Source: Vezdaea acicularis (lineage: Eukaryota). Taken from it: a stretch of DNA of 64,000 nt. Under the pieces are notes generated by a model. That model was not told where the DNA came from, did no database searches, and was given only the letters and a program-made list of their open reading frames with translations. Each line of letters opens with the position of its first letter. Positions within the stretch are counted from its first letter, which is position 1. Of the stretch, positions 24,940 to 48,702 are shown one piece after another. The stretch lies in contig JAPEUI010000018.1 in the NCBI GenBank assembly GCA_026025075.1, forward strand, positions 62,001-126,000, given 5' to 3'. Both the position numbers and the translations under genes were made by a program.

Positions 24940-25028
24940 GTTTGGTGGTTTCTTCGACACCGATGAAGGGAAGACAGAGCTGCATTGGTGGCGTTGCCGG
25001 GATAGTATAGCATAGCGTTGCATCAACC

Positions 25029-25296: not shown

Positions 25297-25934
25297 GGGC
25301 GGATCAACAACAAGCGAATCGCGTGACCTGGATCTGTGCAGGCGAGACGATCGCAAAGCTACAGCGCTAGGAATCAGACCGCCTGAAACTGGACAAAACT
25401 ATTACGGACTCATCCATTGGACCAGGGAAGGAGTAGCCAATGCGTTCCTCACAATGTGGAGAGATTTTTGCACACGACCTTTGAGAGCACTTGGGACGGT
25501 CTATGTCTGGCTGAAGACAAGGACTGAAGGGCACATCGCAGAGAGTACCTCAGGCATCGAATATAAGACCTCGCTCTCATCATTGCGTTTATCGTAAGGC
25601 AATACTTTTTCCCACGCGGGGTAATTATGCCTAAACGAATGCCTGAACGGCCGGTAGACCCTGGTTCTGGACCCTTTGGTGCCCCGTTTCAGCCTCGCTC
25701 GAGGGCTCGGCTGTAGCCCCGACCTCTGATATCAGCGTACGCATTTACTGTACTGTACTTGTACATATGCAAGGTGAAAGACTGTGGCAATGTGTAGGCG
25801 CCCAGCCTCAGCCACCAGCCATCAAGCTGGAAGCCAGCCTGATTCAAAATAGCTGAAAAGGCTGAAGCACCCATCCAAAATCCGATCATACGTCTTATTT
25901 CGCTTTTCGTCGGATGCTCTGTTCCATCACTAGT

Positions 25935-27746
25935 ATGGCGGAAGTTGTCGGTATCGCTGCTAGTGCAGTCACACTTGCGGCATTGTTCAGTAAATGCATC
26001 GACTGCTTCTCTTACTTTAAGGCGGCGCAAAACTGCTCCGCTGAAGCTGAAATGTTACTAGTGAAGCTTGACTGCGAGAAGGCCAGGCTGCTTGTCTGGG
26101 CGAATACTGTGGGCATCCTGCATACGGATGACCAGGGGCGATATCCACAGTTGGCCGATTCAGAACAGGAAATGCTGATTCGACGCTGTATTGATCAGAT
26201 CATTAGCCTCCTGACAGATGCCCAGACACTCCAGGCTGATTATGGGGGCTATCCAACGAATCAACAGGAAACCCAGCGTTCTGTCGCAGTGGTAAGCGTC
26301 AACAGCATGAACATATTCATGATAACAAAACGGGGATTCTTTGCTCGCGCTGGTGGACTTAATCAAGCGCCAAGCTGGTTAACTCGAATCAAATGGGCAA
26401 TTCGTGATGGAGCCAAATTTCGAATCCTTCTTGCACACCTGAAGGACTTTGTGGACGACATCATCATGCTTGTGCCAGTACCTCCAGAGGTCATCAATAA
26501 CACAGTTGAAGAGGATATCACAAGAATCATTGACATTAGTACTCTTCGACTTGCTGAGAGCGCTTGCGAGGAAAGCTATCCAAGCTGGTCGACGCGAGCA
26601 AGCGAGGTCATTAAAGAAAGCGAACTTGGAACTCTGGATCCCCGCGATCTTGAAGAGATAAGTGAGGACATGAATCAGCCTGAGATCGCCCAAAATGGAT
26701 CTGGGTTGAATGCAGGCCAAGATCTTCATTGTAAGCCAATAATTTGAAAATTGTCGACGAAGACTAATCTGCGCTAAGGGGGGTGGCCGCTCTCGCCAAA
26801 GATTTTCCTCGTTCTCACCGATAAATGTCTAGATCTTGAGGCCGATGGTCATTGCGAATCCGCTAGAATAGGTGACTCAATATCTCGAAGGACAGATATC
26901 TCGTTTGCCTGTCCACACACAGCCCGCTGGAATCTTGGCCGCCGCGTTTTGGCTAATGTCAAGATGCCATTCGAGTCGTCGGAAGAGATGAGCAAGATTG
27001 AAACCATGAGATTTGAAACTTCAAAACATACCGGTGAATTACCAGAAGTCCGCCCAGTCAGCAGGATATATATTCATTGTGGTCCATGTGCTTGCGCTAT
27101 CGAGACAGCACTGGAATTCACTCTCAATAATGATATGTCAGAGTACTTTGACCTCTCAATCCGCATTGATGAACGACTGGAAACAAGCTGTCGTCGGAGC
27201 AGCACCATAATTAACGTTCTTGCTGCATTACGCGATGTCACAGCTAGCCATGAGGTCAAACACTGGGACTACAAATCAAGATCTCTTGGTTGCATTGATT
27301 GTCCAGAGCTTGAGAAACAGATATATGACCTTGAGCAGGAACGGTCTGGACATCGCGAACCAACAACTGTCCTGCAAAGAATTTTGCATGACCATTATAA
27401 AGTTAACGAAAGCAGTCTCACAATTGGAGCAGTTGTCATCATCGGTGAAGCTAACCTTTGTCACCTCTCACTAGAAAGCCGGCCATTTCATGCTGAAGCC
27501 AGGAAGCCACAGGAAACAGATATTTACTCTATCAAATCTCTTTATACACATACTGGGTGGATATGGCGGAGGGAATATGCTGGATCTTATAGTAGAAGCA
27601 AAAACGCAATCGAGAAAAAGAGAGCCGAGTCAAGTTTAATCACACACCGGGCTTCTCCGTCAACGTTTGGCGTAACAGCTACGACGCCAACGACTCCGCG
27701 CACTAAAAGGCCCCGATCAGAATCCACTGCAGAAACAACTAGCTAG
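25935..27746 (+). CDS. HeLo (HET-s/LopB prion-inhibition) domain protein with unknown C-terminal domain; intron 26731-26778, ~587 aa
   Basis: MAEVVGIAASAVTLAALFSKCIDCF...LLVKLDCEKARLLVWANTVG and RIKWAIRD are HeLo hallmarks. The GTAAGC...CTAAT...AAG intron joins in frame to the 26949 ORF. Confidence 0.85.
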
Positions 27747-28343
27747 TAATGTAAATCTGGGATTACCAGCTCAACATCTAATGTTGTAACAAACGTACAG
27801 CGGGGGGTCGCAAATGTCGTACATTTACGAGACCGCTAGCATATGGTATAACACCCAGAAACCAAGAACTGGCTATACTTGATAAGGCATTTATTTAATT
27901 GATATATGGGGGACCTCCCTAGGTAATCTGTGAACTAGGTTTCTTACGAATGTATTCGTTGATCGCCATGCTTAGGGCATGACAAATGTGAGAGGCACAA
28001 TTTTTGCGGATATACAACACTACGACCCCCCACTGTAGTATGTGTAATCTGTCATGAGAGATCTTCATTAGATGCCCATCCCAATTAATCATAGGAGCGC
28101 TCATGGGGGATAGAATGGAATTGCTATTGCTGTTATCCTACTTAGTCTAAACTAGCCCGACAGTGCTTTCGTGAGTGAATAGTACATTCCCGCAACCGGC
28201 TTTACTTGCTCCTGTCACCTTGACGCCGTCATTCAGAACATAATGCAAAGGTCTCCAGGTCTATTCCTCTTGCCTAAGACGCCAAAAGCAAAAAGAATTA
28301 TCTCTTCCCCTTGCTGTCTCGTCTTTAACTCGCTCTTTGGTCT

Positions 28344-29989
28344 TTACAAATCATGCCTAGCCATCTTACTCCTTGCTCTAATCCTCTGCCCATAGAAGTA
28401 CAAGACGAACGGAATCGGAATGAACGCGATCGCTAAGAATCCCAGCAAGCTGCTCGCCCACGCGACCCCTAACTTTACATACATAGCGTTTGCGAACAAT
28501 GGAAATGCGGCCCCAAAAGCGGACCGAACCAGGTCGTTCCCTGCGTACACGGACGCCACGTACTTGGGATAGGCGTCCCCGAGATAACTCAGGACAGCCA
28601 TGAACAGCAGGAATGCTCCCATGGAGAAGAACGAACTCCCGATGATGGGCATGATCCAGTGGACCGAAGGACGTGCAGACCACCCAAACCAGAAGAGACA
28701 GATAGGAATGAAGAAAGCGCCGACGAAAGCGGGCTGTAGTCTGATTTCGGGGCGCAGTTCACCGTTTTCGTTGAATTGAGGCTCAACTCGCTTGTAGATA
28801 TAGTAGAAGAAGGGCATCATGACGGTAATGGCTCCAAGCAGGATACCGATGAAGGCAAGACCTTCAGAGCCTAGAGAGAAATGGTAGATTCCGACAAACA
28901 CGATGGGGAAAGACTCGAACCAGAGGTAGAGAAGGCCATAAATGAGGGCAATATACATGTTGAGGAGAAAGCAGATGGGCTCGGTGAAGCTGAGGGTAAA
29001 GGGGCGGACAAAAACCATGAGAGCAATTTCCTTCCCAGTCATGCCCTCGGCTTCGAGTTCTGGCTCGCATTTTAGTTTGTCGTTACCGGTGAGCTTGCGG
29101 ATGCGTACAGTGCGGCGGTACAGGATGTTCGCTGCGCTTGTTTCGGGGAGAAAGAAGGTTAGAAAGACCAAGCAGAAGCCTGAGAGCCACATGAGCTCCC
29201 AGATGGTCCACGTCCAGCCTTTGTTTTCCGCCGCGAAGCCACCAATAAGAGGACCCATTGCTGGTCCAAATACTGCAGCAATTCCCCACACCCCTATACC
29301 GTAGACCTGCTTTGATGGCTTATACATATCCGCTATAGTAGCTCCTCCTGTAGCGAGCACAGGGCTTCCGACAAAACCAGTAATGAATCGGAAAACTAGA
29401 AGCATTCCAAAGTTCTTGGCGTATATAACTGCGAGCTGTAGGAGAACGAATGCAAATAAGGTGCCAATATAGACAGGGTTGCGACCAATGTAAGGAATTT
29501 CTGACATCGGAGCCTAGGAAGATATGGATCAGCAAATGTTTGCCAGAAAGAAGTAAGGGCTCTTACCCAAATCATTGGACCAAGAGCATAACCCAAGACG
29601 AAGAGGGTCAAGCCTAGAAGCGCAGCAACTTCACTGACTCGAAATTGCTTCACGACATCAAGAATACCGGCGGTGTAGATTGCAGATCCAATGTAGACGG
29701 AAGTTGTTAAAAGGCAGACCTGGAATGTCACGAATATCTTCTTTGGCGTGGACCAATTCCTAGGGTTATGGGGGTCATTCTCGCTCCATTCGATCAGGCG
29801 GCCGTCTTTGCCCTTCTCCATGTCGGCATTGGGCCCCTCGGAAGCTGAATTCGACGAAGTCTCGGAACCTACAGTTCCATATTTCTGAATTGCAGAGGAA
29901 TCTAGTCCATCATCATGGGCAAGAAATTTGCCTCTAGATATGAAACGGACCAAGTGTCCGAAGACTGTGTCTCGGAAGAGGTCTTTCAT
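28344..29989 (-). CDS. MFS drug:H+ antiporter (DHA1, Caf5/Flr1-like), one intron ~29514-29567
   Basis: WSENDPHNPRNWS, GRNPVY, GSPVLATGGATIADM and LPETS motifs; about 12 hydrophobic segments. Confidence 0.92.
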
Positions 29990-30527
29990 GAAGAGAGATG
30001 TAATGATGAATTACAGTACTACGAAAGGTGAAGAAAGAAGAGAAGGCGTCGTAGAAAGTCGACTGGAAATTATGAACGACATCAAGTGAATGAAGGTAGT
30101 AATATAGTCGGCGTAAAACATGACTTAGGAGATTGACTATTGAGGCTCGCTGTACGTCATGACTTTCCGACATAGACGCGGCAGAAGTTCCCTTGTTCCG
30201 AGCGGGTGTGAAACACTGAGCACTCATGTCCTCTTGTTCAGCAAGCTAAGCCAAGACGGAAAACCTATTCCCAGACGTCCGTTTACCTATGGTGCAAGCT
30301 GCTATATTAGACGCGCATCGGGAAAATAGCTTTCGGCTCGGAGTGACGGAGTCGGCATTTGATTTCTTAGGGATCCGTGCTAACCATTTCTGGCGCACGC
30401 CTCTGTCGGCTTTTGATTGTCGGGACCGCCACTAACCACATCTGTCGCGCTACCTCTATCGGCTTTTGTTTTCACACGCAATTCCGTCTTGACGAGTTGA
30501 TTAATTTTCCTTCCATCGTCCCTTGCA

Positions 30528-32934
30528 TCACAGGAAGGCACTTTGACTAGATATGACGTCATCTTGGACTTGTATATCATCGACGAAATTCCTCCAATTC
30601 ATCCATGCCATATGATTCGTATCGTCGCTATACTGACCTTGGCTTGTTGGTCCCATTGTCGACGGCATTGCTGCCATAGCCAACCATGGGTCCCAATCGA
30701 AAGGCACAAAAGTAGAAGTTGAAGGGAGTTGCTGAACCGCATCTGTAGAAATTATGTCGCCGTCAATCGTTTCCATCGTAAAATCATTGATACTATACAT
30801 TGCATCTGCCGTGTTGGCCAGAGGACTCATTTGCCCTGACATAGCCAATGGGACCTTTGTTGCTGATAAGTCGGCTATCGCCGAGCGTGAGTCGAGATAC
30901 TTCTGTCTTACGCCTTGAGCTTTGTTCATCAGCTTCTTGATAGGACGCCATAGCATGCCCTGATTCGAGTCGGCCACGTGTTGCGCCGTTTCCTTATAGG
31001 TGGGCTCTAGGATTGCCCATGCTCTCTCAACCACTGGACCCTCAGTCTTCACGCACAGCTCAGCAGTTGTCACAGCCAATGCGTGCCACTGTACGTAGGT
31101 GTGTGACAGCCATCTCAAAGGACTTGCTGCTGGGTCCGTATTTATTTGGTGGGCCTTCTCAAGAACCTCGACCGAAAGACGAAGAATGCCTGGATCTGGC
31201 ACTGCAGAGGAAGAGACACTTTCAGGACGCCTCTGCAAAGGCCGATATACCATTAGCCACATCGTAGCGGTGATTATGTCAGCAACCATTCTCGTCGCCC
31301 ATTGGAAAGGACGAGTCACATTAAGATGACGCAAGTACCTGTCTTCGATACGGCGTTGCATGTTGATAACCGTGCTTATCCTCTGGTTCCATATCTCCTT
31401 AGATCTAGCCTGCGGTTGGCCAAGCTCTCGTGCAGGTACGTAATTGAGTTGTCTTTCCACGTCAAAAACTTCTTGGCAAATCAGGCAGAATGTCATATCA
31501 GTAAAGCTGTCTCGTTCCTTCACCTCTTCGGATGAACCAGAACGCAGATCTTCATCATTGATATGCAAGGGCAACTTGGTGTTGAAAGAGTTAGCAGTGA
31601 CCACAGGGTCTGAAGCACGATCTCCAGCTGCACGAGAATCAAGGACGCATATCTGCCACCACAAGCGGCGCCCCATTTCTCTTTCCAAGGGCTGAAGTAA
31701 ACATAATGTACTGTCATAGTGTAGCCCCATAGCTTGAGCTATTCGGACCGCCAAGCTTGTTAAAGTCCAGCTAAGGCGGGTGTTATCGTTGGCGCGGACA
31801 GAAACCTGGAATTATAGATTAGCACCGCTAGCAAAAGCCGCGATATAAACTCGAATGGAGCTAGGAACATACTAGGTATATGACGAGTGCCTGTAGTGTT
31901 GATGTTTCGACCGTGTTAACAAAGTCCGCCTTTGCCAACGATAGCTCCGTTCCTATCCGGTACCTTAAAAGCAGTACCGCCTTGTCTTCACCGATGCGTT
32001 GTCTGCATTCCCATTCTGTCAAGCTCGAGGTAGCAGCATAATATATAGCAAATTTTAATGCCTCTCTTCCCTCTACACCTGGGCTACAATCAAGCTCCAC
32101 TGCATCTTCCTGTAGATATCGGCGCAGGGACGGGCCATGTAAAATCTTGAAGACTGGATCGACATTGGCCAGATAGACGTCGCAGAAAGTGTGGACCTGA
32201 TGACGCGTCGGATAGGAAGGATTTTCCGTGGACATCGTCCGAGATATTACGAAACCTGAATGATTGGACTGCTGTCGCCTTGAACTTGGCAGATTTAATG
32301 CAGGAGTTCCCCTATCATGGCCTTCCTCTTCTTCATCAGACGTACCGCCCAGCACATCCTTGAGTCCACTGATCTCGTCGCTCAGCGCCATCCAAAACGA
32401 AGTTCCCACGTACCGATCAAGTCGTGGCATGGTGGCTTGACTTTGATCAGACTTAGCTCTAGCTCCTTGTTCGGTTTTGCCACTGCTCCAATTCAATTGG
32501 CCACGACCTTCAGAAGGGACGGCAACGTTTGCAAAGCCACCCTGCCCATCTCCACTAATAGTACTAGCAACATCACGGCTCCCCACGGTCGTCATGTCTT
32601 GCACTTTTGCAGCCCCTTCGTTCTTTTCTATCTCTTTAACCAAGTCCTCCAACTTCGAAATCCGTTCCAGTAGCTCCTCATCTGTCCTCTTCCTCTTCCT
32701 TCCACCCTGTCTACCCCGTGGCATCCGCAAAGGAACGGATGGCACGCATTCTGCTCCTACCCGTAGACAGTAGCCACAAGGATTGGATCGATCGCATTTT
32801 ACCTTCCGGCGGCGACAGAGCGTACAGCTTGCTAACGTTTCATGGTGAGAGTTCATGCTAGATAACGATCCAGCCTCAGTGTTCGACTTTGTGACGCCAG
32901 ACGGCTTAGGTGGAGGTACGGCGGTGCTATCCAT
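30528..32934 (-). CDS. Zn(II)2Cys6 transcription factor with fungal-specific TF domain, one intron ~31806-31874
   Basis: SCTLCRRRKVKCDRSNPCGYCLRVGAEC; middle homology region AVRIAQAMGLH...EREMGRRLWWQI. Confidence 0.92.
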
Positions 32935-33386
32935 TAGTGTGGTCTTCGTCGTGGTAACTGAGTCACTGTGTTGAGCAGAACGCCTCTCAATAGCGCTGTC
33001 TGCAGGTTCCAACGGGTTCCATTGCAAATCTCACGATACTGTTTGGTTCTAGATGTTGATTTCCACACTTGCTTTCCTCTCGGAACGGCGGATGACAATA
33101 CTTCTTCCAGCACATCTATACATTGCATGAAACCTCAAACATGAACAGAATAATAGGATTCAATCCAAGAGATCAGGTATTGTCGAGGGCTGTGTTCACG
33201 TACTGCACTGGACGGTACTATCCCGAAGACTTTAGAGTGGAGCTCGACAAAGACTCAACCGCTAAGCACTTTCAAATGTGGAATATTTTAATGCGTGGTT
33301 CACGCGTTGGACATCACACCCTAAGTGCACAGTCTTCATAAAGAGAGTTTGAGAGATTCAGACTTAGATGATTGGCTCGAGACCTT

Positions 33387-33682
33387 GAAGCGGTGGACAA
33401 AATTGATGGCAAATAAACGGAGGTTCCCCCATAGCTAAATGCTACTAATCGAAGGCACAAAACGGGAGTTCCCCAATGGCCAAAAGCTACACACTCGAAG
33501 GCATAGAACGGCCCTGCCAGGCCGCGGGCTTAACCCGGAGCAGTACTATTGAGCTCATACTAAGAATAATTAATCATCGATTGCCAACCATCTCGGTACT
33601 ACTAAGAGTAACGTATAACGTATACTGTAGGCAAAAATGCCCAGCGCTCGCTTATGCGCCCATCAATTTCGTGGATCACTTC
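33387..33682 (+). repeat. ~270-bp inverted-repeat-bounded element, copy B (with internal ~48-bp tandem duplication)
   Basis: GAAGCGGTGGACAAAATTGATGGC ... TTATGCGCCCATCAATTTCGTGGATCACTTC; shared interior GAGCTCATACTAAGAA. Confidence 0.85.
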
Positions 33683-34283
33683 ATCACGATCATCCTCCCG
33701 ATGAGCAGGTGCGGCTCGCCTGCGCGACCCCTGCGGCATACCTGTGAGCGCTTTCTTGGCAGCCGCCGTGGCCTCGCCGACGCCCTGCTATGGGGTCGGC
33801 GCTGGTCCTCACAGTATGGCGGAAAGGCCAGACCACAAAGAGTAATCTAGATATCTGCAAGTATAGGCTCCTATTTATGAAGGTTTGAACTGTAGATATC
33901 GATCTAGCCCTAATGTATGATGGGCAACTCCAGGTACAGGAAGCAGTTCAGCCTTGCATATACAGAGGTCTAGGCTGTAATTCGATCGATATAAGGGCCT
34001 AGACTTGGCAGAATACATGTTTTCATACTCGGTTGGCAAGGTGGTATGATTATTGGCTACGTTGACTAGTACTTTTGCTGGTAGCGCAATATTCAAAGTG
34101 TATAAATAGTGTAAGGCTCGTACGCTGTATGTATTCAGCAAGAACGAGAAGGCGAACGAATAACGTTGATTCTATCCTAGTCAAAACTTTTCGATGATGC
34201 GCATTGTTTTCAACTCTAAACCTGGATTCAACGCCTCCGTTTCCGGCGCACTGTTTCTACGAACGCTACATCAAGAACTGTCC

Positions 34284-36117
34284 TCAGCAACACTGCAAGC
34301 ACTTTAGGCTTTTCTGCTTTAGCACCAATATGCATGCAAAGGTCAGAATAGTCAGAAACATGGAGATCACGATGAAAATCCAGAATTGTGACGATACCAC
34401 TATGTGCGTCGCATTGGTAGTATTATGGGCGCCGTTGGGTTGCCATTGAATAAGACCGGAGCTGAAGATGGTCTGCTGCAAGTCAGTATCCTATGCGAGA
34501 GTGGAATTGGCTGCACATACCGCCGTCAGTGTGGCTGGAAGATAAATTGTAGCAACGGTGCTCAGGGCTTTGAGGAGCTTCGAGTCATGTTGACCTTGAC
34601 GCGCTATATCAACGGCTACAAGGCTATTCTGCTCGCTGCCAATGGCAACTTGGCGCAATAACTCGAGCGTGCAATGCATCGCGCCATTAGTCTCGGAGAG
34701 CGTCGCGTCATTGCGGAATTCGAGGATCTTGAACAGCTATTGGGGCCCGTGCGCACACGTCAAGGGACTGATCCCATCATATCCTCGTGTATCATAGAGG
34801 ACTACTCACCAATTTGCTTGTACCAAGCGATTGCTCTATGACCTCTCGAACGCTTCGCCGATAGCTCTGGATCTGGCGGATGTGGGTTGTGAGCTCCGCC
34901 ACTACCTGCTCGCCCAGCCTGGTTAGGCCAAGAGCAATGAGCGAGTGACAGTGCTCAGCATATCCCCGCGCCGTGTCTAGACACGCATCGAGTGTCCTCG
35001 ACGTTCTGAGAAGCTTCTGGCGGAGTTGCTGCAGCTGCTGGCAATCCTCAAAGGTGATCTGATAATCGGTAGGAACTTTTTTTCCGACTCGCGAGTGACA
35101 TGCCTTTTCATCCTACAAGCTGTGAGCTCCGCATGCCTATGAAGCAGAACCCGTATCACCCACTAATTTAGATAGCTGGTCATGCAAGTATTCGAGATAT
35201 AGTGCCCAATTGCTTGCCATGGCGGAAAGAAAGTCAACGTGTAGCCGTACCTGATCCACCCCGTCGCGGCGATTGCGATACATCTTATCGGCCAACGCCT
35301 GCTCAAGTCGAGTGCGCATACCGGTAGCGATCTGCAAGATAATCCAGCATGATTGGCCATTTTTCTGGTGGAACTGATGGTATACCGCAGTCTGGCGTAG
35401 TGACCATGGATCGCCTACGCCGCGCCCATTCTCTTCCATGTATCGGAGGCTATAGCAGCATTCTAATGGGTCGTTAGACGCGGACAGCGGAGAAGTAGGC
35501 TCAAATTGCACGAACCATGCATAGTATCCGCATCCTTAGATCCTTGTATGGGTAGACTCGATCGGAAGCCACTCCATGTATGTTGATCGTCATGTGTCCT
35601 GAGGCCATATGTTGGCAGCAGGTCGAGAAAGGCGATGAAGACTCTATGCGACGCTAGAAGTGTTTGTAGAGCTAGTTGCGATATGCGAAATGGGCCCCAA
35701 GTAAACTGCTGCGGGATCAAGCTAGGAGATGTCAGGTGCATAATCTTCCCAGAACAGGGTTAAGCTGACTAGAAATAGTCTCTAGCGAAGCTACGATTGA
35801 TCTGAATGCTGATATGAATTTATGCTTGTAAATTCTGACTCTACATCATACCTGTATATGCAAGTTAAGGGCGTCAATACCCTCCAAACAATGGGTTTCG
35901 ACCTCTAAACCCGGTCAGTAATGTCTCCTAAAGAATGGAGCACGAACATATATGGACCTCCATTTACCGACAGTAATCGGAATAAAACTAGGCTATTTTC
36001 ATGGCTAGAAAATAAGCGCTGGGAATCATCCATAAGGCGACGGCGATATCGTTCCACATCATCACGCGCCGGGGTCAACAAGTCGTAACCTACTGGATTG
36101 GCATCGTGTCTAGCCAT
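34284..36117 (-). CDS. Fungal CorA-like membrane protein, multi-exon
   Basis: Short exons assembled with GT-AG introns give FYLIPQQFTWGPFRISQ...FLDLLPTYG, ECCYSLRYMEENGR..DPWSLRQTAVYHQF, a coiled stalk, and two C-terminal TMs (LKALSTVATIYLPATLTA|TIFSS ... FWIFIVISMFLTILTF). Some exon borders are approximate. Confidence 0.75.
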
Positions 36118-36457
36118 TTTCAAGCCGCGATTATGCGAGCGCAGGGTACGACGCGCATCTTATAAATTGCCTGCTCCTCGTCATAACAAGGCTACGACCG
36201 AAGTAACTCTGCTGCAGCGCCTATCGCAGGAAACCATGCAACTAGAAACAGCCACGTCTCAACCACATTGCCGCTACTGCATCTACTTGTACGTGTACTG
36301 TGAGCATGCTGCCTTGACTACAGTAGCCTGGTCGCCACGCCCTAAGCCCTACGCCCGACTTAGCTCAGCCTTTCTTCATGCTTGTGACCCCGACACGACC
36401 ATAAATCCCACGATACGCCGTGTAAGATCAATCACCGCATCTCATGACATAGCACAC

Positions 36458-36750
36458 ATGGATACTCAAGCTGTGCAGTCAAGATACTGCGACAAAGCGG
36501 CACTGTCTGGGCTGCTGACGGAGCTTTTTGGTACGAACTTCTTGATAGAGGTATATCGATTCATGATTTTAACTGGTATCAAATTGAGCTAAGCAAGCAG
36601 TAGGACCAAGGGGAGTACTTTTTGCTCACCATCCCTCGCAGACTGACCAACGTACATCGTACCCCTTGCTAGGGCTAGTGGTAGAGCGTAAATGCCGCTA
36701 ACAAGGGATAGGATGAGATCTCGAGGCTCCAGGTACAACTATTCAAGTAG
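36458..36750 (+). CDS. 59-aa three-exon microprotein of unknown function (exons 36458-36550, 36604-36651, 36712-36750)
   Basis: Two ~55-60 nt phase-0 introns (GTATAT..GCTAAG..TAG; GTACAT..GCTAAC..TAG) give MDTQAVQSRYCDKAALSGLLTELFGTNFLIEDQGEYFLLTIPRRLTNDEISRLQVQLFK*. Confidence 0.7.
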
Positions 36751-36767
36751 ATGCTTCCGCCGCGTCC

Positions 36768-39629
36768 ATGGCAGCCAAAGTCGATCCTATCGATGATCTC
36801 CGCGCCAGCATCCTCGACACCCGCCAGATAAACTATGTCAATCTGCCGTTCGTGCCGCAGGACGATTTATATCGCCTCCTATCCCCACCGGTGGTTCTCT
36901 CGGTGCTGAAGAGCAGTGGCTTGGATACTAGCCGGCTCAGCGAACTTGCCCAGAGCGTTCACCAAGGTGCCCGTAAGGTATTTGCGATTCTGGTCATCTT
37001 AAAGCAGGTCCAGCACACCCCTGACCTCGTCAGCTGGGATCATTTTCGGGATCTCGATCCCCAGCTGCCGTTCGAGCGGGATGCCCTTGAGCGCATGCTC
37101 CCTCGGGCGTTCGTCGCGACGGAATTCTATGACCAGCAGTGGCAATTCCTGGCGCCAGTCTTCTCAAAAAAGCTACTGCCACGCGAGCTCGTGAAGCGGA
37201 TCCCCCTACCGATCACTGAGAAAATCAAGGTTGGTAGCGGTAGCTTCGGGACAGCTTACCGGATTCGCATCCATCCTTCCCACAACGGCTTCGGCACGAG
37301 CGTCGACGAGAGCGTATGGCTTCCTTCTAGCTAGACATGGACGGTGCTCACGCGGAAATAGTTTGTCCTGAAGAGCTTCAGCGTAGGTGACGAATCACGC
37401 GACGACTACATAAGTGAGGCGAATAATCTATCCATTCTGAGCCATCTACGGCACCCCTACATCATCGAGCTACTTGGCGCATTCACCCACGACAATGAGC
37501 ACCATCTGATATTCCCTTGGGCGCCAGGCGGCGATCTCGCCGCGCTGTTGCGGGGTCCGGCGCCCGAGTTTCAACGCCGCGAGGACTGGCTCGTTGCTCT
37601 ATGCCGCCTCGCCTCGGCCATCGAGCGAGTGCACAACGTCACGGCGGAATCGCTGCTAGACCTCCCCCTCATTGGGTGCCACCACGACCTGAAGCCACGG
37701 AACATCCTAGTCAAGGGTACGACTCTGATGCTGGCTGACTTTGGTCTCTCCAGGTTCCGGGATGCCTCCGAGCCATCCGCGACGCGCCACCGGATCGGCC
37801 AAGGCGACTACCTGGCGCCAGAATGCGAAGATATCGAGAACAGCTTCGCCAAAGGCACCATCGGCCGTTCGAGCGACATTTGGTCCTTTGGTTGCATTAC
37901 CGCGGAGATCCTCACCTATATGCTCAAGGGCCCAGATGGCGTCAAGGACTTCCGCAATCAGCGGCGATACCGGGTGCCTAACTATCTGTTCTTTCACTTC
38001 CACCATGGCCCGCTGACGCCTAGCCAGGGCGTGGCCGGCTGGCTCTCACAGCTGGAGAGCGAGCCGCAGGTAGTGCCGATGCTCCTACCGCTGATCCGAC
38101 AGATGCTATCGGTGGAGCCCACGCAGCGTCCCAAGGCTAAGGAGGTCCAGGCACGCCTCCAGTTCATCGCCATACGCTTGATCGCGGAGGATATCGCCCA
38201 AAAGTATGCGATGGCCTGCGAGCGGAGCGGCTCAACATTCGCCTGGATCGAACGATGCAAGTTTGAAAGCTGGAGGCACGCCTGTGGGACCGCGCGCGCT
38301 GCCGAGACGCCCAATACGACGCCGGCTGAGGGATTCGACCACAACTTCCAGGCCGCCTTAGATATCCTCTATCATGTCCGAGAGCATTTAGAGTCCATTG
38401 AATCGGCGGATTGCTGGCGGCGGGAACGAGCCTTCTTCCCACTTCGATACTTTAATAAGGATCTCGCTGAACTGCTTCCCTACACTGCGCAGAAGGAGAT
38501 GGAAGGTAAGCTAGAGAGTTGCCTCTTAAACACCCTTGACACGGAGCGTTTGAGGGATATCGGACAGGCCCTACACACCCAGATGCCGGGGAAACGACCT
38601 GTGCGACTGGCGAAAATCAAGCGGATGACCCTCCTTGTGGAGCAGCATGGTCACCGGACGCAATCGAGCCTGGAGATTGACCCAGGCAGGGTCCGGCCCG
38701 GTGGGTCCGCTGGGGAGTCCGTCGAACTTCAAGCCAGCAAGATCATGGTGATGGACGGGATGCCTGTCCTCGTCGAATGGGTACAGCACGAGTCGCATGT
38801 AGAAGAGGAAATTGGCCGTGAGCGCCTTCTTCACATTGATGCTCTTGCAACCCTGCTTAGCCTGAAGGATAAACCCGAAGAGTTCCGCGTTCTCCACTGC
38901 TCCGCATACTTTCATGATCCCAAAAGATCTCGATCCGGGATAGTATTTGAACTCCCAGCCCCGTCCGTGGTCGGCGAACCACTAAAGCCACTGACGCTCG
39001 CCAAAGCACTTGCGCCACTCACCGAAGGTAAAGAACGTAAAAAACGGCCGGCGCTTGGAGACAAGTTCAAACTGGCCAGCGCTCTCGCCAATTCGATTGC
39101 CGAGCTCCATAAGGTGGGTTGGCTGCACAAAAATATCTCGTCCTCGACTATAATTTTCTTCCCGCCGTTTGGATCCTCTCCCAGGAAGCATATAACGAGA
39201 CCTTACATCATCGGCTTCAGCCATAGCCGACCGGCGTTTGGAATTACTCAAGCGTCCTATGATATTAAGTGGAGGGACTATCAACATCCCGAGTATCTTC
39301 AAAACAAGTCACAATTTACCTCAAAATTCGACTATTATAGTCTTGGCATGGTGTTGCTCGAGATTGGTTATTGGGAACCACTTCAGCAGATCACACATGA
39401 TTGGAACTGCCCGAATGAAATGCTTCGCGATCGGCTTCTAAAAGAAAAAGTGCCACGGTTGAAAGAAAAGATGGGTGAGATCTACTTCGAGGCAGTGAAT
39501 ATGTGCTTGAGCAGTAAGTTCACAGCTAGAGGAAAGAGTGAAGATGAAGTTGAAGTTGATAATGCTACGGCGGTACATCTTGAGTATGAAGAGCTTGTCG
39601 TGGCGCAGCTTGCAAAGTGTTCAGCCTGA
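36768..39629 (+). CDS. Tandem protein kinase + kinase-like (pseudokinase) protein, intron 37314-37361, ~937 aa
   Basis: Domain 1: GSGSFG, FVLK, HHDLKPRNIL, DFG, YLAPE, DIWSFG. Domain 2: LHKNISSSTII, IIGFSHSR, YQHPEY, DYYSLGMVLLEIG (catalytic Asp and DFG absent). Confidence 0.88.
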
Positions 39630-39696
39630 CTATAGCACAATTATGCTAGAATGTTTTAACTATAAAGTCGGAGTCTTGGCAATCCAAAGTTTATTT

Positions 39697-39964
39697 GAGG
39701 TTGCAGTCAAAATTGATGGCGCATACGCGATGGTTCCCTCACAAAATGCTACAGGCTCGAAGGCACAGAACACCCCCATAAGGCCACGGACATGGCTCAG
39801 AGCATGATACTGCAAAGATACAAAGGCGAAATACTCTAGAGCTCATACCAAGAACAATTACTATGAGATCGTCGGCAATCTCTGAGCTGCTGAGAGTAAT
39901 GTACGATGATGGGTAGACATGCCCACTGCTCGCTTATGCGCCATCGATTTTGACCGCAACCCTC
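39697..39964 (+). repeat. ~270-bp inverted-repeat-bounded element, copy C
   Basis: GAGGTTGCAGTCAAAATTGATGGCGCATA ... TATGCGCCATCGATTTTGACCGCAACCCTC. Confidence 0.88.
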
Positions 39965-40789: not shown

Positions 40790-43700
40790 ATGGCTGTCGT
40801 TACACCCATGGGTGTCTCGATATCTCAAACACGCTGGTCATTCGATGAGCGATGGAGCTCCTCCTCCTACAGCTCTGGCATGGCTGAATCTATACATTCC
40901 GAGCGGTATGACTTCATTACGTTTTTAGAAGTATGTCAGAACCTAGAGATCGATTTCCTTCCGATTACATGGCAACCGGCTCTTGATCATCTTGGGATAG
41001 GCGCGCAGAGTGAGGTGCGTCAGTCACTGGTGAATCTAGCTCTAAGCTTTGCCTTCAACCGCGTGAATGTTTCTACGAGCCTCTCGCGAGAGAAGGAAAA
41101 CCAGATATACCAAGCTCTGATATCTCAGGTTTCGATCTTGGCAAACTCCAAGATTCAGAGTCATCTAAACATCAATCATCTCATTGGTGTATGCTGGGAT
41201 ATCATACCAGAAGAGAATAATCAGAATCAAGAATACATTCATCCCCGAAGAGACGGTTTACCTCGTGACGAAATCGAAATATGGCAGAACATTTCGTCTT
41301 GCAAGTGGAGGGTCTGGCCTGCGTTGGTGTTCGAAAAATCTAAGCATGGAGATCTAAACTGCTTCATGAGGTCAGCCTCTGGATTGAACCTAGATATTGT
41401 GGGGAGACTTAAGCTTTGTGCGGATATTGCCTGCGGAGTCCAAATTCTGCATGAGAATCGTAAGTAAAAACAGTATCAACTCGTATAGGCATCGAACTAA
41501 GCTTGTGAATAGGTGTCATACATGGGGATGTGAAGCCCCATAACGTGCTTATCTTTGAGGAAAGATCTGGGGAATATACCGCAAAACTAGCTGATCTGGG
41601 CCATTCTGTTGCTTTCAGTACTGATGATGACGATGCATTGATGATATGTACTGAGCCCTGGCAGGCTCCGGAACATAGCTACCGAATGAAGCGTGGACTA
41701 TCTTTTATGATCCGCATGGAAGTCTACACCTTGGGCATGGTATGCTTATGGCTTCTATTTCATGAACGGCTGTTTGAGCTGGGTATTACCTTCGATCACC
41801 AGGGTATGGGCCGTCTGAATGCGTTAAAGAAGGGGCATGGTATATCTGAGGTCGCCCAGAACTTGACGCGGGAAGCGCAAGGCCTATCAGCTGATCAAAT
41901 CCTGGGCTTAATCGGATTCTTTAGTTCATGCTTAACGCCTAATCATGCAGACCGAGGCTCTGATATGGACCCTTTACTGCAGCTTCTTGGAGGTAGCTTT
42001 ATTGCACCAAAGCCCTCGGTGCCTGCTGCAATAACCATAAGAAAACCAAGCAGTGAGCCTCACGAAACTTTCAAAGTAAGATCGAATTTGATTTAAACAG
42101 CATGTTTTTAACCAAACTAGTACAGATTTCGAAATCCGTCAGAGATTTTTATAGAAGTGATTATCGCCTCCGCATCTATATTACGTCTTGTCTAAGAGAG
42201 AGATTATCCCATACTGCAAAAAATGACCCCAGCAACAATCTACGATCTGAGAAAGCAGCATTCCAGCTTGCTTTATGCTTCCGGTTAGGTTTTGGAGTTA
42301 CCCCAGATGATAAAAAAGTACAAGATTTGTTGCAACGGAGCGGGAGGCCGATACAAGAGCTCAATCTGGAAATAAAATCAATCAAGCAAGGAGGCATCAG
42401 GGGACGGAACGAATACTACGCAAGTCTTTCCAATAAAGGCTTTGATGCGACAATAATTGATGCAACATATTATCAAGGAAGTAGTTTGTTGGATGAAGCT
42501 ATTGTAGAGCTGCTAGCAGACGTGTATAATCTGAATCAAGCGTTTCCGGATTCAGTATATATTATAAAGATTCTGGAATCCATATTAGGCCATCTTCTGA
42601 GTTTCCAAGGACGCTGGACAGAGGCAGAGAGACTGCGGGTGCAGGTGATGGAGACAATAAAAAGAGTGCTTGGAGAAGAGCATCCTTCCACGCTGACTAG
42701 TATGGGTAATCTGGCATCAACTTACAGTAACCAAGGACGCTGGACGGAGGCGGAGAGACTGCAGGTGCAGGTGATGGAGACAAGCAAAAGAGTGCTTGGA
42801 GAAGAGCATCCTTCCACGCTGACTAGTATGGGTAATCTGGCATCAACTTACAGTAACCAAGGACGCTGGACGGAGGCGGAGAGACTGCAGGTGCAGGAGA
42901 TGGAGACAAGCAAGAGGGTGCTTGGAGAAGAGCATCCTTCCACGCTGACTACTATGGGCAATCTGGCATCTATCTACCATGATCAAGGACGTTGGACAGA
43001 GGCAGAGAGACTGGAGGTGCAGGTGATGGAGATAAGTAAAAGAGTGCTTGGAGAAGAGCATCCTTCCACGCTGACTAGTATGGGTAATCTGGCATCAACT
43101 TACAGTAACCAAGGACGCTGGACGGAGGCGGAGAGACTGCAGGCGCAGGAGATGGAGACAAGAAAAAGAGTGTTTGGAGAAGAGCATCCTTCCACGCTGA
43201 CTAGTGTGGTTAATCTGGCGTCAATCTACCGGAATCAAGGACGTTGGACAGAGGCAGAGAGACTTCAGGTGCAGATGATGGAGACAAGAAAAAGAGTGCT
43301 TGGAGAAGAGCATCCAGACACGCTGACTAGTATGGGTAATCTGGCATCAACTTACAGTAACCAAGGACGCTGGACGGAGGCAGAGAGACTGCAGGTGCAG
43401 GTGATGGAGACAAGCAAGAGGGTGCTTGGAGAAGAGCATCCAGACACGCTGACTAGTGTGGTTAATCTGGCATCAATCTACCGGAATCAAGGACGTTGGA
43501 CAGAGGCAGAGAGACTGCAGGTGCAGGTGATGGAGACAAGAAAAAGAGTGCTTGGAGAAGAGCATCCTTCCACGCTGACTAGTATGGGTAATCTAGCATT
43601 TATTTACTATGATCAAGGACGCTGGACAGAGGCAGAGAGACTGCAGGTGCAGGTGATGGAGACAAGCAAGAGGGTGCTTGGAGAAGAGCATCCTTCCACG

Positions 43701-45665
43701 CTGACTAGTATGGGTAATCTGGCATCAACTTACAGTAACCAAGGACGCTGGACGGAGGCGGAGAGACTGCAGGTGCAGGAGATGGAGACAAGCAGGAGAG
43801 TGCTTGGAGAAGAGCATCCTTTCACGCTGATTAGTGTGGTTAATCTGGCGTCAATCTACCGGAATCAAGGACGTTGGATAGAGGCAGAGCGATTGCAGGT
43901 GCAGGAGATAGAGACAAGCAAGAGAGTGCTTGGAGAAGAGCATCCTTCCACGCTGACTAGTATGGGTAATCTGGCATCAACTTACAGTAACCAAGGACGC
44001 TGGATAGAGGCAGAGAGACTGCATGTGCAGGTGATGGAGATAAGTAAAAGAGTGCTTGGAGAAGAGCATCCAGACACGCTGACTACTATGGGTAATCTAG
44101 CATCAACTTACGGTAACCAAGGACGCTGGACAGAGGCAGAGAGACTGGAGGTGCAGGTGATGGAGGCAAGAAGGAGAGTGCTTGGGGAAGAGCATCCAGA
44201 CACGCTGACTACTATGGGTAATCTGGCATCAACTTACCGGAAACAAGGACACTGGACAGAGGCAGAGAGATTGCGGGTGCAGGAGATGGAGACAAGCAAG
44301 AGGGTGCTTGGAGAAGAGCATCCTTCCACGCTGACTAGTATGGGCAATCTGGCATCTATCTACCATGATCAAGGACGTTGGACAGAGGCAGAGAGACTGC
44401 AGGTGCAGGTGATGGAGACAAGAAAAAGAGTGCTTGGAGAAGAGCATCCTTCCACGCTGACTAGTATGGGTAATCTAGCATCTATTTACTATGATCAAGG
44501 ACGCTGGACAGAGGCAGAGAGACTGCAGGTGCAGGTGATGGAGACAAGCAAGAGGGTATTTGAAGAAGAGCATCCTTCCACGCTGACTAGTATGGGTAAT
44601 CTGGCATCTATCTACCAAAATCAAGGACGCTGGACAGAGGCAGAGAGACTGCAGGTGCAGGAGATAGAGACAAGCAGGAGAGTGCTTGGAGAAGAGCATC
44701 CTTCCACGCTGATTAGTGTGGTTAATCTGGCGTCAATCTACCGGAATCAAGGACGTTGGATAGAGGCAGAGCGATTGCAGGTGCAGGAGATAGAGACAAG
44801 CAAGAGAGTGCTTGGAGAAGAGCATCCTTCCACGCTGACTAGTATGGGTAATCTGGCATCAACTTACAGTAACCAAGGACGCTGGATAGAGGCAGAGAGA
44901 CTGCATGTGCAGGTGATGGAGATAAGTAAAAGAGTGCTTGGAGAAGAGCATCCAGACACGCTGACTACTATGGGTAATCTAGCATCAACTTACGGTAACC
45001 AAGGACGCTGGACAGAGGCAGAGAGACTGGAGGTGCAGGTGATGGAGGCAAGAAGGAGAGTGCTTGGAGAAGAGCATCCTTCCACGCTGACTAGTATGGG
45101 TAATCTGGCATCAACTTACCGGAAACAAGGACGCTGGACAGAGGCAGAGAGATTGCGGGTACAGGAGATGGAGACAAGCAAGAGGGTGCTTGGAGAAGAG
45201 CATCCTTCCACGCTGACTAGTATGGGCAATCTGGCATCTATCTACCATGATCAAGGACGTTGGACAGAGGCAGAGAGACTGGAGGTGCAGGTGATGGAGA
45301 TAAGTAAAAGAGTGCTTGGAGAAGAGCATCCAGACACGCTGACTACTATGGGTAATCTGGCATCAACTTACAGTAAACAAGGATGTTGGATAGAGGCAGA
45401 GCGATTGGAGGTGCAGGTGATAGAGACAAGCAAGAGAGTGCTTGGAGAAGAGCATCCACGCACGCTGATCAGCATAAACAATCTTGCTCATACTTATGCA
45501 AATCAGGGCCGTCTCGAGGAAGCTATTACTACAATGAAGACTGTTGTCCAGCAATTTACGGCTACTATTGGCGCAGATCATCCGCACACGCTAGTTTCTG
45601 TTCAGGCTCTCAATGCCTGGTCTAACAACCGACGGCTCGAGCAAACGGACGATCCCACCGACTAG
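40790..45665 (+). CDS. Kinase-like domain fused to highly conserved 42-aa TPR repeats; introns 41460-41512 and 42076-42125, ~1590 aa
   Basis: In-frame splicing gives LGIGAQSEV, VIHGDVKPHNVL, ADLG, PWQAPE, a linker, then the QGRWTEAERLQVQVMETSKRVLGEEHPSTLTSMGNLASTYSN repeats. Confidence 0.85.
42606..45503 (+). repeat. Coding tandem repeat, 23 units of 126 bp (TPR), followed by one degenerate unit
   Basis: CAAGGACGCTGG-like starts recur every 126 bp from 42606 to the degenerate unit at 45504 (2898 bp / 126 = 23). Confidence 0.95.
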
Positions 45666-46229: not shown

Positions 46230-46406
46230 AGGTTATTAAGGAGTCGACCTTCATAGTAAATGCCAATCTACGTTTAGACAGAAAGGGGCAGCTTATGAGC
46301 GCGTCCTCGCTCGGGCAGTTTTGTACGATCAAAGTTACTGTGCTACCAATTCTTTCTCTGCTCCAGTCGTAAAATTGCCCCGCGCCCCTCATCTATTGCT
46401 TAGGGC

Positions 46407-46620
46407 GAGGGTGCGGTCAAAATTGATAGTGCATCAGCGTTGATGGCCCACAGAAAAGGTCACAGGCTCCAAGGCACAAAACAATCTTATAACGCTACGG
46501 GCATGGCTCAAAGTATGATACTACAGAAATATTAAAGGTGCAGTACTCTAGGGCTCATACCAACAAGAATTACAATGGAATTGCTGACTGTCTTGCGACT
46601 GCTGAGAGTAGTGTACGTCT
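46407..46620 (+). repeat. Inverted-repeat element copy D, 3'-truncated by copy E
   Basis: GAGGGTGCGGTCAAAATTGATAGTGCAT start; interior matches C/F up to GCTGAGAGTAGTGTACG; no right end. Confidence 0.8.
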
Positions 46621-46776
46621 GAAGCGGTGGACAAAATTGATGGCGCATTAAACGTGGGTTCCCCCATAGCTAAAAGTTCATACCCGAAGGCCCAAAACGG
46701 CCCTTCCAGATCGCGTACATAACCCAGAGCTTGATAGCCTAACAAGAGTAAAGGCGCAGCACTATCGAGCTTATGC
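46621..46776 (+). repeat. Inverted-repeat element copy E, 3'-truncated
   Basis: GAAGCGGTGGACAAAATTGATGGCGCATTAAACGTGGGTTCCCCCATAGCTAAA, closest to copies A/B. Similarity fades near 46776. Confidence 0.75.
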
Positions 46777-47178: not shown

Positions 47179-47841
47179 CTAATTACCCACAAAATTGAAT
47201 TTAGTGGCCTTCGTAACAATAAGAATCCGTAATACATTTTGTTCAAGGTATTCATCCTCATCTTTACCTTTAGCATTTGTACACGCCCTTCCGCAGGCCC
47301 TAGGATTTCCGTCATGCAGAGAAATGCCTCGGGGACACTGATAAACCTTCTCTATTCCCCATGATGGATAGTATAATCGCTCCTTATCTGCATCCACCGT
47401 GGCGTCGTAGCTACTCCTATGTACTTCTTCCCCGGTTACCTCTTCGACCGAGTACTTGATCGTTATGGCTTGCATATATCCCTTATCTTGAGCCCATTTA
47501 CGAAGCGGCTCAATTCCAAAGTATTCCGCTTCCTTCTTCAATGCCACATAGAATGCATGATCAAAGCCATTGCTTTTGTCATAGATTATTGGTAGTACTC
47601 CCCGTCGCAAGTAACGCAAGATGTGCGCAAATAGGTCTGGGTCCGCATCGATGAAGTAAGAGCCGTCGCTAGATTGCGAGTCAGAGCAGCGGCCAGAAAG
47701 CAGGGATGCAAAGTAAGCAGATTCGCCAGAGAGCGTCGACGCAAGTGTGGTGAATCGACGTTCTCCAACCTGTAAGACTATGCTCTCATGAGATGGCGAG
47801 GCTGGAGGACTATTATCAGCCGACGGGGTAGGATCCGACAT
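47179..47841 (-). CDS. BTB/POZ (KCTD/K+ channel tetramerisation-type) domain protein
   Basis: IVLQVGERRFTTLASTL...YFASLLSG...YFIDADPDLFAHILRYLR...EAEYFGI; Cys/His-containing tail. Confidence 0.85.
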   Translation of the reverse strand: MSDPTPSADNSPPASPSHESIVLQVGERRFTTLASTLSGESAYFASLLSGRCSDSQSSDGSYFIDADPDLFAHILRYLRRGVLPIIYDKSNGFDHAFYVALKKEAEYFGIEPLRKWAQDKGYMQAITIKYSVEEVTGEEVHRSSYDATVDADKERLYYPSWGIEKVYQCPRGISLHDGNPRACGRACTNAKGKDEDEYLEQNVLRILIVTKATKFNFVGN

Positions 47842-48424
47842 CGCGGATTTTTTTAAACTTTTCTTAGTAGGTGGAATCACCAAAACAGATAAAGCAACTA
47901 TTGCAATAGTATTAACAAATGGTTGTCAGTCAACGAGCTCAATCTTATATTAGAGCTTACAAGAGATAAGAAAGTGAGGGGAACAGCGATTGTCTTAAAT
48001 CAGCCAGCACAGACTCAGATGTATATCAACGGATACATGAATGATGCAAGAATCCAAAAACTTTCAATGAGACAAAGGACTTGATAAAGGTTGCGAGCAA
48101 TCATCTGCGGAGTCTTGGTTATATGGGTATCGTTGACATGTTACCACATCTTTGAGGACAATACAAAAACGATTACACATTCGGAGAAGTACATGAAACG
48201 TCTGTTCGATGATTATTTAGGCGAACAAGCCTAATTTGTGCTCTGCTGCAATGAAGGCAGCCCACAGATCCAGTGTATTGCAGATTATCTAATAAGGCTT
48301 CTAGTCAGCATGAATATGTGATTTCCCTTTAAATTTTTCAGGTTGACGCGAGGGTTAGCTATTCTTCTAATGCCTTTATCGGCTCCATACAGAAAAAGAA
48401 AGACAACTGACCAGATATAATACG

Positions 48425-48702
48425 AAGCTGTGGTCAAATTGATAGCGCATAACCGATGGTTCCCACACAAGAAAATGCCACAGGCTAGAAGGCACAAACC
48501 GCCCTCACAAGGCCACGGGCATAGCGCAGAGCATGATACTGCGAAAAGAACAAAGGCGTAGTACTCTAGAGCTCATACTAAGAAGGGTTACTACAAAATT
48601 GCTGACGGTCTTTGAAATTTGTAGAGTAATGTATGTTGATGGGGTAGGCATGCGTGGCATGCCCGCTGCTTGCTTATGCGCCATCAATTTTGACCACAGC
48701 TT
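48425..48702 (+). repeat. ~270-bp inverted-repeat-bounded element, copy F
   Basis: AAGCTGTGGTCAAATTGATAGCGCATAA ... TTATGCGCCATCAATTTTGACCACAGCTT. Confidence 0.88.

Follow-up and report, generated by a model that had tools for sequence, protein, structure and literature searches.

In plants, tandem kinase proteins carry a kinase and a pseudokinase in one chain, work together with NLRs, and have a cation channel as their output, and in bacteria, type III CRISPR systems employ CorA-family effectors that are activated by a nucleotide signal rather than by kinases. The fungal immune and cell-death clusters known so far rely on NLRs with HeLo/HELL domains, on amyloid motifs, or on a gasdermin with a protease. 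The accessible text of reviews describes fungal cell-death pathways as being often organized in clusters of two or three genes that encode a sensor and a membrane executioner, mentions HeLo/HELL domains joined to kinase or pseudokinase domains in fungal cell death, and characterizes the sensor repeats of fungal NLRs as near-identical units with few variable positions; the accessible part of the NLR surveys lists the protein kinase among the N-terminal domains of fungal NLRs. Here, we analyze a stretch of 64,000 nucleotides from Vezdaea acicularis (GenBank assembly GCA_026025075.1, contig JAPEUI010000018.1, positions 62,001 to 126,000 of the forward strand; hereafter the window, numbered from its first letter), in which four genes lie together that encode a CorA-like membrane protein, a microprotein of 59 amino acids, a tandem kinase–pseudokinase (K-PK), and a protein with a kinase-like domain and tetratricopeptide repeats (K-TPR).

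Our results show that these four genes recur side by side in many filamentous fungi that are only distantly related, as expected of an ancient cluster conserved in Pezizomycotina, and it is very probable that the cluster is functionally coupled. Our reading of the whole, which we hold to be evenly balanced between right and wrong, is that K-TPR acts as a sensor that signals through K-PK to the CorA-like protein as output, with the microprotein as regulator, in a response to non-self or stress. The cluster seems to be undescribed in the open full text covered by our literature search, which returned no paper on DUF7580 or on the 'CorA-like transporter domain' (subscription journals and supplements lay outside the search) and listed nothing relevant on fungal clusters of CorA-like, kinase, TPR, and microprotein genes, on pseudokinases of Pezizomycotina, or on bicistronic or upstream open reading frame (uORF) designs in filamentous fungi. 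CorA-fold proteins are likewise unmentioned in the accessible text of the fungal cell-death reviews and of two NLR surveys.

Gene layout and linkage across fungi

The cluster occupies the middle of the window and is composed of the following features.

34284..36117, minus strand: gene encoding the CorA-like membrane protein, 7 exons, 472 aa
36118..36457, unstranded: head-to-head intergenic region between the CorA-like and microprotein genes, 340 bp, from the gene coordinates
36458..36750, plus strand: microprotein gene, 3 exons, 59 aa, with the same exon plan in 16 of 16 models
36751..36767, plus strand: spacer of 17 nt from the microprotein stop codon to the K-PK ATG, read from the sequence
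36768..39629, plus strand: K-PK, tandem kinase–pseudokinase, 2 exons, 937 aa, same as deposited P0001
40790..45665, plus strand: K-TPR, kinase-like domain plus TPR repeats, 3 exons, 1590 aa, from gene model, Pfam, repeats, and synteny

A divergent pair formed by a seven-exon CorA-like gene and a spliced gene of 59 codons on either side of a 340-bp spacer, with the microprotein stop codon (36748-36750) 17 nt ahead of the kinase ATG (36768), had been described in the original prediction for this locus, and all of these coordinates hold. The spacer is a putative bidirectional promoter.

Metagenome contigs were scanned with an alignment of K-PK, which yielded 597 pattern matches, 393 of them encoding a relative, and the best 80 were taken as loci. 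A tblastn search with four K-PK segments defined 23 of these as family loci (L001-L023), and the remaining 57 encode other kinases. Sixteen family loci have at least 1 kb of sequence upstream of K-PK, and the same 14 of them carry both a CorA-like gene upstream (at 0.9-6.3 kb) and the microprotein; when the near-identical L006, L007, and L008 are merged, the count becomes 12 of 14. Seven loci have under 1 kb of upstream sequence; in L001, L003, and L014, the cut end of a microprotein gene is visible at the contig edge, and the other four show nothing in the 135-420 nt present. On the downstream side, the family loci offer about 106 kb of flanking sequence, in which a single weak CorA-like match was found. 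Within the 57 loci of other kinases, CorA-like matches occur in two (L030 and L066) and the microprotein in one (L030); L030 is itself a trio of microprotein, CorA-like, and kinase genes, with a kinase that is more distant. Since the same gene set recurs in unrelated contigs, the arrangement goes beyond chance.

The genes remain neighbors even where their order and orientation differ. With the window counted, the microprotein gene is head-to-head with the CorA-like gene in 14 of 16 models, and in 12 of 16 it immediately precedes K-PK on one strand. The exceptions are L002, where a K-TPR gene is inserted and K-PK lies 5.2 kb off, L013 and L020, where the microprotein gene is inverted, and L030, where the order is changed. 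Because the linkage survives such rearrangements, it points to a functional cluster rather than to one transcript. One 312-kb contig of Geoglossum umbratile (Geoglossomycetes) encodes, under consecutive locus tags, the kinase (M1839_000764) and the closest of the CorA-like relatives (M1839_000765). Unlinked homologues in other genomes had been named beforehand as grounds for giving up the original prediction; homologues of the trio were found linked in the metagenome loci, and those of the kinase and CorA-like genes in G. umbratile.

K-TPR, which the original prediction had left outside the unit, belongs to the same neighborhood. Its N-terminal part (aa 1-450) is encoded beside the trio in 14 of the 23 family loci (13 loci at E<=1e-8 plus L020 at 2e-9) and in none of the 57 loci of other kinases, and it can lie on either side of the trio and on either strand. 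The kinase-like head occurs twice in L002, L003, and L004, in L004 with one copy on each side of the trio.

The four encoded proteins

The CorA-like gene begins with an ATG at 36117 and ends with a stop codon at 34286-34284 on the minus strand, and its exons (36117-35968, 35904-35852, 35721-35516, 35462-35164, 35112-34810, 34736-34521, and 34475-34284) are separated by six GT..AG introns of 45-130 nt. Over exons 3-6, the gene model is identical to M1824_001955 (P0121, 357 aa), a partial model in the deposited record, and the added exon 1, with an RLF motif, and last exon, with the second transmembrane helix (TM2), align to annotated full-length homologues of 469-480 aa. The protein consists of an N-terminal cytosolic domain, a long stalk helix, and two C-terminal TM helices. 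P0121 carries the precomputed family label PF26616 and the UniRef name 'CorA-like transporter domain-containing protein'. The Pfam CorA family (PF01544) scores 15.1 bits on P0121, below its cut-off of 27, and appears as a precomputed label on 3 among the 71 CorA-like relatives listed.

The GMN motif (Gly-Met-Asn), at the end of TM1, is the selectivity motif that defines CorA-type Mg2+ channels. It is missing from the CorA-like protein, for which the window reads ...YLPATLTA-(Q)TIFSSGLIQW, with S-S-G in the place of GMN; homologues have FSSN, FSSS, or FGSG at this position, and the consensus of 17 sequences is FFST. With the motif missing and the Pfam CorA match below threshold, the gene does not encode a housekeeping Mg2+ channel of the GMN type, an identity that had been named as telling against the original prediction. 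An AlphaFold2 (AF2) model of the CorA-like homologue P0274, with a predicted local distance difference test (pLDDT) score of 75.7, has an alpha/beta domain, a helix spanning residues 301-414 that runs into TM1, and TM2. In a Foldseek search of this model against the PDB, CorA of T. maritima was the best match, followed by ZntB (E 1e-7 to 1e-5, prob 1.00), at a sequence identity to solved CorA of about 11%. The CorA-like model of the window aligns to P0274 over its full length. Modelling predicts a CorA fold for the family, in whose sequences the GMN motif is missing throughout.

K-PK is encoded by two exons (36768-37313 and 37362-39629), and its 937-aa product is the same as the deposited M1824_001956 (P0001). 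The protein consists of an N-terminal domain of about 150 aa, a Ser/Thr kinase (Pkinase, residues 152-445, 116 bits), a helical middle region, and a DUF7580 pseudokinase (residues 721-907, 36.6 bits, cut-off 27); a Pfam search with the N-terminal 185 aa found no family. In the first kinase, residues G158, F160, and G161, K186, E201, H289-x-D291, N296, D308-F-G, and A334-P-E are invariant in 22 of 22 sequences, and by these residues the domain looks like an active Ser/Thr kinase. The second domain is missing both the catalytic Asp and the Asp of DFG and has invariant motifs of its own, with H-K-x-I-S-S in place of HRDLKxxN and G-F-(N/S)-H-S-R in place of DFG. The kinase–pseudokinase architecture that the original prediction had assigned is therefore borne out, the catalytic motifs being intact in domain 1 and lost in the DUF7580 domain. 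The nearest solved sequences are NEK2 and NEK7 (E ~1e-22), which match the first domain only.

By their names, the family members presumably come from Dothideomycetes, Sordariomycetes, Eurotiomycetes, and Orbiliomycetes, together with lichen-formers. One contig of Bacidia gigantensis encodes two K-PK paralogues, KY384_007119 (P0025) and KY384_007185. The deposited model of P0025 has a start resembling exon 1 of the microprotein that is joined directly to the kinase N-domain; this N-terminus is probably a gene-model merge of two neighboring genes.

The microprotein gene has three exons (36458-36550, 36604-36651, and 36712-36750) with phase-0 GT..AG introns of 53 and 60 nt. It is unannotated in the deposited record, as can be seen from the flanking locus tags, M1824_001955 and M1824_001956, which are consecutive. 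The three-exon plan with its two phase-0 introns is kept in all 16 models (15 loci and the window): exon 1 has 31-35 codons and ends in a short strand-like motif, exon 2 has 16 codons (48 nt) in 12 of the 14 tabulated models, and exon 3 has 9-15 codons and is closed by a stop codon in 16 of 16. Comparing L015 with L019, the exons are 78-88% identical, versus 61-63% for the introns. A hidden Markov model of exon 1 found L012, L005, and L030 among 44,860 fragments (E 5e-5, 0.02, and 4e-4, respectively), none of which was in its training set, and a 33-column exon-1 profile matched 361 cluster representatives at E<=1e-3 in 1.84 billion proteins. Among the 150 matches listed, at least 12 are proteins of 55-67 aa with all three exon equivalents contiguous. 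Stand-alone, uncharacterized homologues are annotated in Hyaloscypha bicolor, Choiromyces venosus, and Tuber borchii (Pezizomycetes). A Pfam search of the microprotein found no family (one Mga match at E 0.066 was disregarded), and an ESM Atlas search with P0134 returned only Ascomycota clusters, at 0.77-0.85 and thus under the lead level of 0.9. Several spliced forms of the microprotein also occur as uninterrupted open reading frames (ORFs) on assembly contigs of up to 10.7 kb, which would fit transcript-derived assemblies.

The AF2 model of the microprotein homologue P0141, built with 12 aligned sequences, has a mean pLDDT of 93.8 and a beta-alpha-beta-beta-alpha order. Foldseek found no match to this fold in the PDB at E<=1e-3. 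With VIA-align, the best match was Atx1 (Z 5.5, rmsd 2.2 over 54 residues), all matches had Z<8, which is the range of common arrangements, and they are generic ferredoxin-like/ACT-like domains. The fold evidence here comes from models of homologues and not from the spliced products of the window itself. A sequence R-x-L-(T/S) followed by acidic residues is nearly invariant in the microprotein and could be a substrate or pseudosubstrate site or merely a helix cap.

Several observations connect the microprotein with the kinase. In five lineages, the distance from the microprotein stop codon to the first in-frame ATG of K-PK is 17, 23, 35, 73, or 85 nt, and in five other lineages the gap is 176-495 nt. 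A terminator and a promoter would not fit into the short gaps, which makes a shared mRNA likely there. The protein P0265 (836 aa, from an assembly contig of 2706 nt) begins with a whole microprotein domain, which is followed after a linker by a Pkinase domain alignable to the active kinase of K-PK at E 6e-13, and it ends in predicted TM helices. A predicted complex of full-length K-PK (P0001) with the microprotein P0141 of another organism scored 0.35 (0.35, 0.37, and 0.35 in separate runs), the best of three controls scoring 0.00; at least 78% of the contacts agreed between the runs, with a partner pLDDT of at least 80, no interface was reported, and alignments were unused. The mark applied to such complex scores is reached by 51 of 78 solved complexes and by 2 of 108 mismatched pairs, and, where the score is 0.60 or below, it is reached by only 5 of the 78 solved complexes and by all 4 passing mismatches out of 180. 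Taken together, the 16 gene models, the 361 representatives, the predicted fold, and the fusion in P0265 uphold the microprotein of the original prediction as a genuine conserved protein tied to the kinase.

A reading as one gene, in which the microprotein exons are 5' exons of K-PK, was rejected: a stop codon ends exon 3 in 16 of 16 models, the gap varies between 17 and 495 nt across lineages, and the sole GT..AG pair found by eye that would splice exon 3 to the kinase ORF breaks the frame.

A further alternative is that the ORF of 59 aa is a mere conserved-peptide uORF that throttles K-PK translation and whose peptide is functionless, and we consider it improbable. In its favor, 12 of 16 models place the ORF ahead of K-PK and on its strand, at distances down to 17-85 nt, and a Bacidia gene model joins an N-terminus resembling exon 1 to the kinase; however, the microprotein gene is on the strand opposite to K-PK in L013, L020, and L030 and lies 5.2 kb off in L002, its product has a compact predicted fold (pLDDT 93.8), its domain is fused to a kinase in P0265, and it is annotated as a stand-alone gene in three named genomes. 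A role as uORF and a function of the protein are compatible and may coexist.

K-TPR is encoded by exons 40790-41459, 41513-42075, and 42126-45665 and consists of an N-terminal kinase-like domain, a linker of about 190 aa, and 23 tandem TPR_10 units of 42 aa. Pkinase scores 40.6 bits on exon 2, and HGD, DLG, and APE are present in the kinase-like domain. At the DNA level, the repeats form 23 units of 126 nt that are 88-95% identical, and TPR_10 matches 24 stretches of the protein. Within the 42-aa unit, 14 columns are invariant and variation is concentrated in 13, the highest entropy being at positions 19 and 31. The 25 Pfam families listed for exon 3 include no NOD family, and the linker, at approximately 190 aa, is too short for a NOD, so that K-TPR is not of the NACHT/NB-ARC type. 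The beta3 Lys, HxD, and DFG are kept in most K-TPR homologues.

The chief rival to our reading is an ion-homeostasis or stress module in which the CorA-like protein is a regulated cation transporter tuned by K-PK and the microprotein under ionic or other environmental stress, and the TPR protein is a scaffold; we judge it unlikely. The CorA fold of the CorA-like homologue agrees with such a module, kinase control of transporters is common, the parts of the cluster are spread over many classes, and no NOD, HeLo, gasdermin, or amyloid motif is found among the four genes. Against it, the GMN selectivity motif is missing, two K-PK paralogues occur on one Bacidia contig, and the TPR array is near-identical with few variable positions, as the accessible text of reviews gives for immune-type sensors of fungi.

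Flanking repeats and neighboring genes

The window contains at least five copies of a family of miniature inverted-repeat transposable elements (MITEs) of about 260-290 bp with terminal inverted repeats of about 20 bp. All copies are intergenic.

~25028-25300: copy A, inverted
33386..33676, unstranded: MITE-like repeat copy B, outside the module and flanking it, from direct-repeat families D15-D18 and a five-copy alignment
39696..39958, unstranded: MITE-like repeat copy C, between K-PK and K-TPR, from repeat search and five-copy alignment
46406-46700: copy D, then a partial second copy
48450-48698: further copy

Copies B and C bracket the trio, as the original prediction had stated, and both are present at 33386-33676 and 39696-39958. 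The co-mobility that it had drawn from these flanking repeats did not stand: the repeats are a multi-copy MITE found at several intergenic sites, and since one copy lies between K-PK and K-TPR, splitting the trio from the fourth gene, co-mobility is unsupported and was rejected. The broader alternative, namely that the genes are linked passively, as a relic or through repeat-driven co-mobility, without a common function, has in its favor the MITE copies that flank the trio. Yet the genes stay together at 45-66% amino-acid divergence of the kinase domain and through inversions and insertions, at least five MITE copies are scattered over 23 kb and also part K-PK from K-TPR, and the upstream flank (24000-34200) has no tblastx match in any locus at E<=1e-6. 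We regard this alternative as highly improbable.

A gene encoding a HeLo domain (PF14479, E 2.6e-41) is located at 25866-26744 on the plus strand, about 8 kb upstream of the cluster and beside MITE copy A. HeLo is the cell-death-inducing domain of HET-S-type proteins. The ORF behind this gene (26778-27743) matches no Pfam family and is not similar to the pseudokinase of K-PK. Closer to the cluster, a Zn(2)Cys6/fungal-specific transcription factor is encoded at 30528-33027 on the minus strand, which leaves about 1.3 kb to the CorA-like gene at its 3' end. This factor and the other upstream genes gave no tblastx match in any locus, so they are not conserved beside the cluster. Upstream of 25 kb, genes are of housekeeping type (RRM, RasGAP, cyclophilin-TPR, and WD40). 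Downstream of the cluster, there are genes for a BTB/POZ protein (47179-47922, minus strand), a tyrosinase (50301-51359, plus strand), and an APH-type phosphotransferase (57625-58617, minus strand), and an inverted repeat is found at 60808-60851 / 61047-61090, with arms of 44 nt that are 84% complementary and 195 nt between them.

Proposed role and comparison with known systems

We propose that the TPR array of K-TPR, variable at few repeat positions, would act as a ligand or non-self sensor. The kinase-like head of K-TPR would then engage K-PK, possibly via the pseudokinase domain, and the intact N-terminal kinase of K-PK would act on the cytosolic domain of the CorA-like protein. As the membrane output, the CorA-like protein would alter permeability, with cation flux, signaling, or cell death as the result. 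The microprotein would be made from the head-to-head promoter that it has in common with the CorA-like gene and, in several lineages (gaps of 17-85 nt), probably from the K-PK mRNA; as a brake or adaptor, it may bind, restrain, or adapt K-PK, its own synthesis preceding and limiting that of K-PK. The original prediction had cast the kinase as the sensor, an assignment that we do not follow, K-TPR being likelier than K-PK in this role. Its further terms, a 'pore effector' for the CorA-like protein, an 'antitoxin' for the microprotein, and 'defence or allorecognition' for the whole, describe putative roles.

A number of points weigh against this proposal. All loci were ascertained via the kinase rather than via the microprotein or CorA-like genes, and the metagenome loci carry no taxonomy. 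Two of the 16 loci have neither a CorA-like nor a microprotein gene upstream: L022 has only 3.5 kb upstream, and L021 has a weak CorA-like match 5.7 kb downstream. In favor of the linkage, lineages that differ more in the K-PK kinase domain also differ more in the CorA-like protein (Spearman 0.63 for 78 pairs among 13 lineages, with nearest pairs shared), yet common descent alone can give such a correlation, which indicates co-inheritance at most. K-TPR is missing from L005 within its downstream flank of 8 kb, and the pairwise distances of K-TPR do not track those of K-PK and the CorA-like protein (Spearman -0.10 and 0.05, respectively), so K-TPR may be a looser partner or one exchanged among paralogues. 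In the K-TPR of the window, L003/4, and L006-8, the beta3 Lys is replaced by Asn or Gly (Asn in the window) and DFG by DLG, and for this reason the head may be a pseudokinase there; judged by these residues, it is likely an active kinase in some clusters and a pseudokinase in others. The evidence for the CorA fold comes from P0274, which is 37% identical to the protein of the window, and the predicted complex, obtained with a non-cognate partner, only weakly suggests that the microprotein binds K-PK.

With these points considered, the cluster would most likely serve in a regulated response to non-self or stress, of the kind seen in fungal immunity or cell death. A more far-reaching version seems to us possible, if on the doubtful side: an ancient innate-immunity or cell-death pathway of filamentous ascomycetes free of NLRs, HeLo, and gasdermin, in which a hypervariable TPR (pseudo)kinase would sense non-self and act through K-PK to open a GMN-less CorA-fold channel, with a microprotein brake or adaptor co-transcribed ahead of the kinase, as a convergent counterpart of plant tandem-kinase immunity and of RIPK3–MLKL necroptosis.

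If our proposal is true, the cluster adds another wiring to those known from fungi, composed of a repeat sensor, a kinase relay, and a CorA-fold membrane output, and it provides a first functional context for PF26616 proteins, for DUF7580 pseudokinases, and for an unannotated microprotein family with hundreds of representatives. The spliced small ORF 17-85 nt before a large one may be a natural bicistronic eukaryotic mRNA and a clean case for its study. All four genes are small enough for expression tests in yeast or in model fungi.

Comparison with described systems brings out likeness in single features. Like the CorA-like protein, CorA/ZntB channels of the MIT superfamily have an N-terminal alpha/beta domain, a very long stalk helix leading into TM1, and a C-terminal TM2; in contrast to them, the CorA-like protein is without GMN, matches PF01544 below threshold, is about 11% identical, and belongs to the family PF26616. 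The type III CRISPR systems with CorA effectors resemble the cluster in that a CorA-fold membrane protein would serve as defense output, and these systems and the tandem kinases of cereals are offered as analogies, not as shown homology. With plant tandem kinase proteins, the cluster would have in common a kinase–pseudokinase chain, a repeat-containing sensor or helper, and a cation-channel output, whereas here the partner is without NOD, the CorA-fold protein is a dedicated one, and a microprotein is added. RIPK3–MLKL and the fungal HeLo/HELL–(pseudo)kinase systems offer a parallel insofar as a kinase and a pseudokinase may drive a membrane-active executioner. In the cluster, however, one chain holds both the pseudokinase and the active kinase, the CorA-fold membrane protein has a gene of its own, and the four genes contain no four-helix bundle (4HB), HeLo, or HELL domain, nor was a RHIM or amyloid motif seen in them. 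Fungal NLRs with ANK, TPR, or WD40 repeats are, in the accessible text of the reviews and surveys, similar to K-TPR in their C-terminal array of near-identical repeats with few variable positions and in a kinase N-terminus, and they differ from K-TPR, which has no NACHT/NB-ARC and passes from the kinase-like domain to the TPRs within about 190 aa. The cluster would be of the clustered fungal sensor/executioner type, and it has no part in common with the modules described so far.

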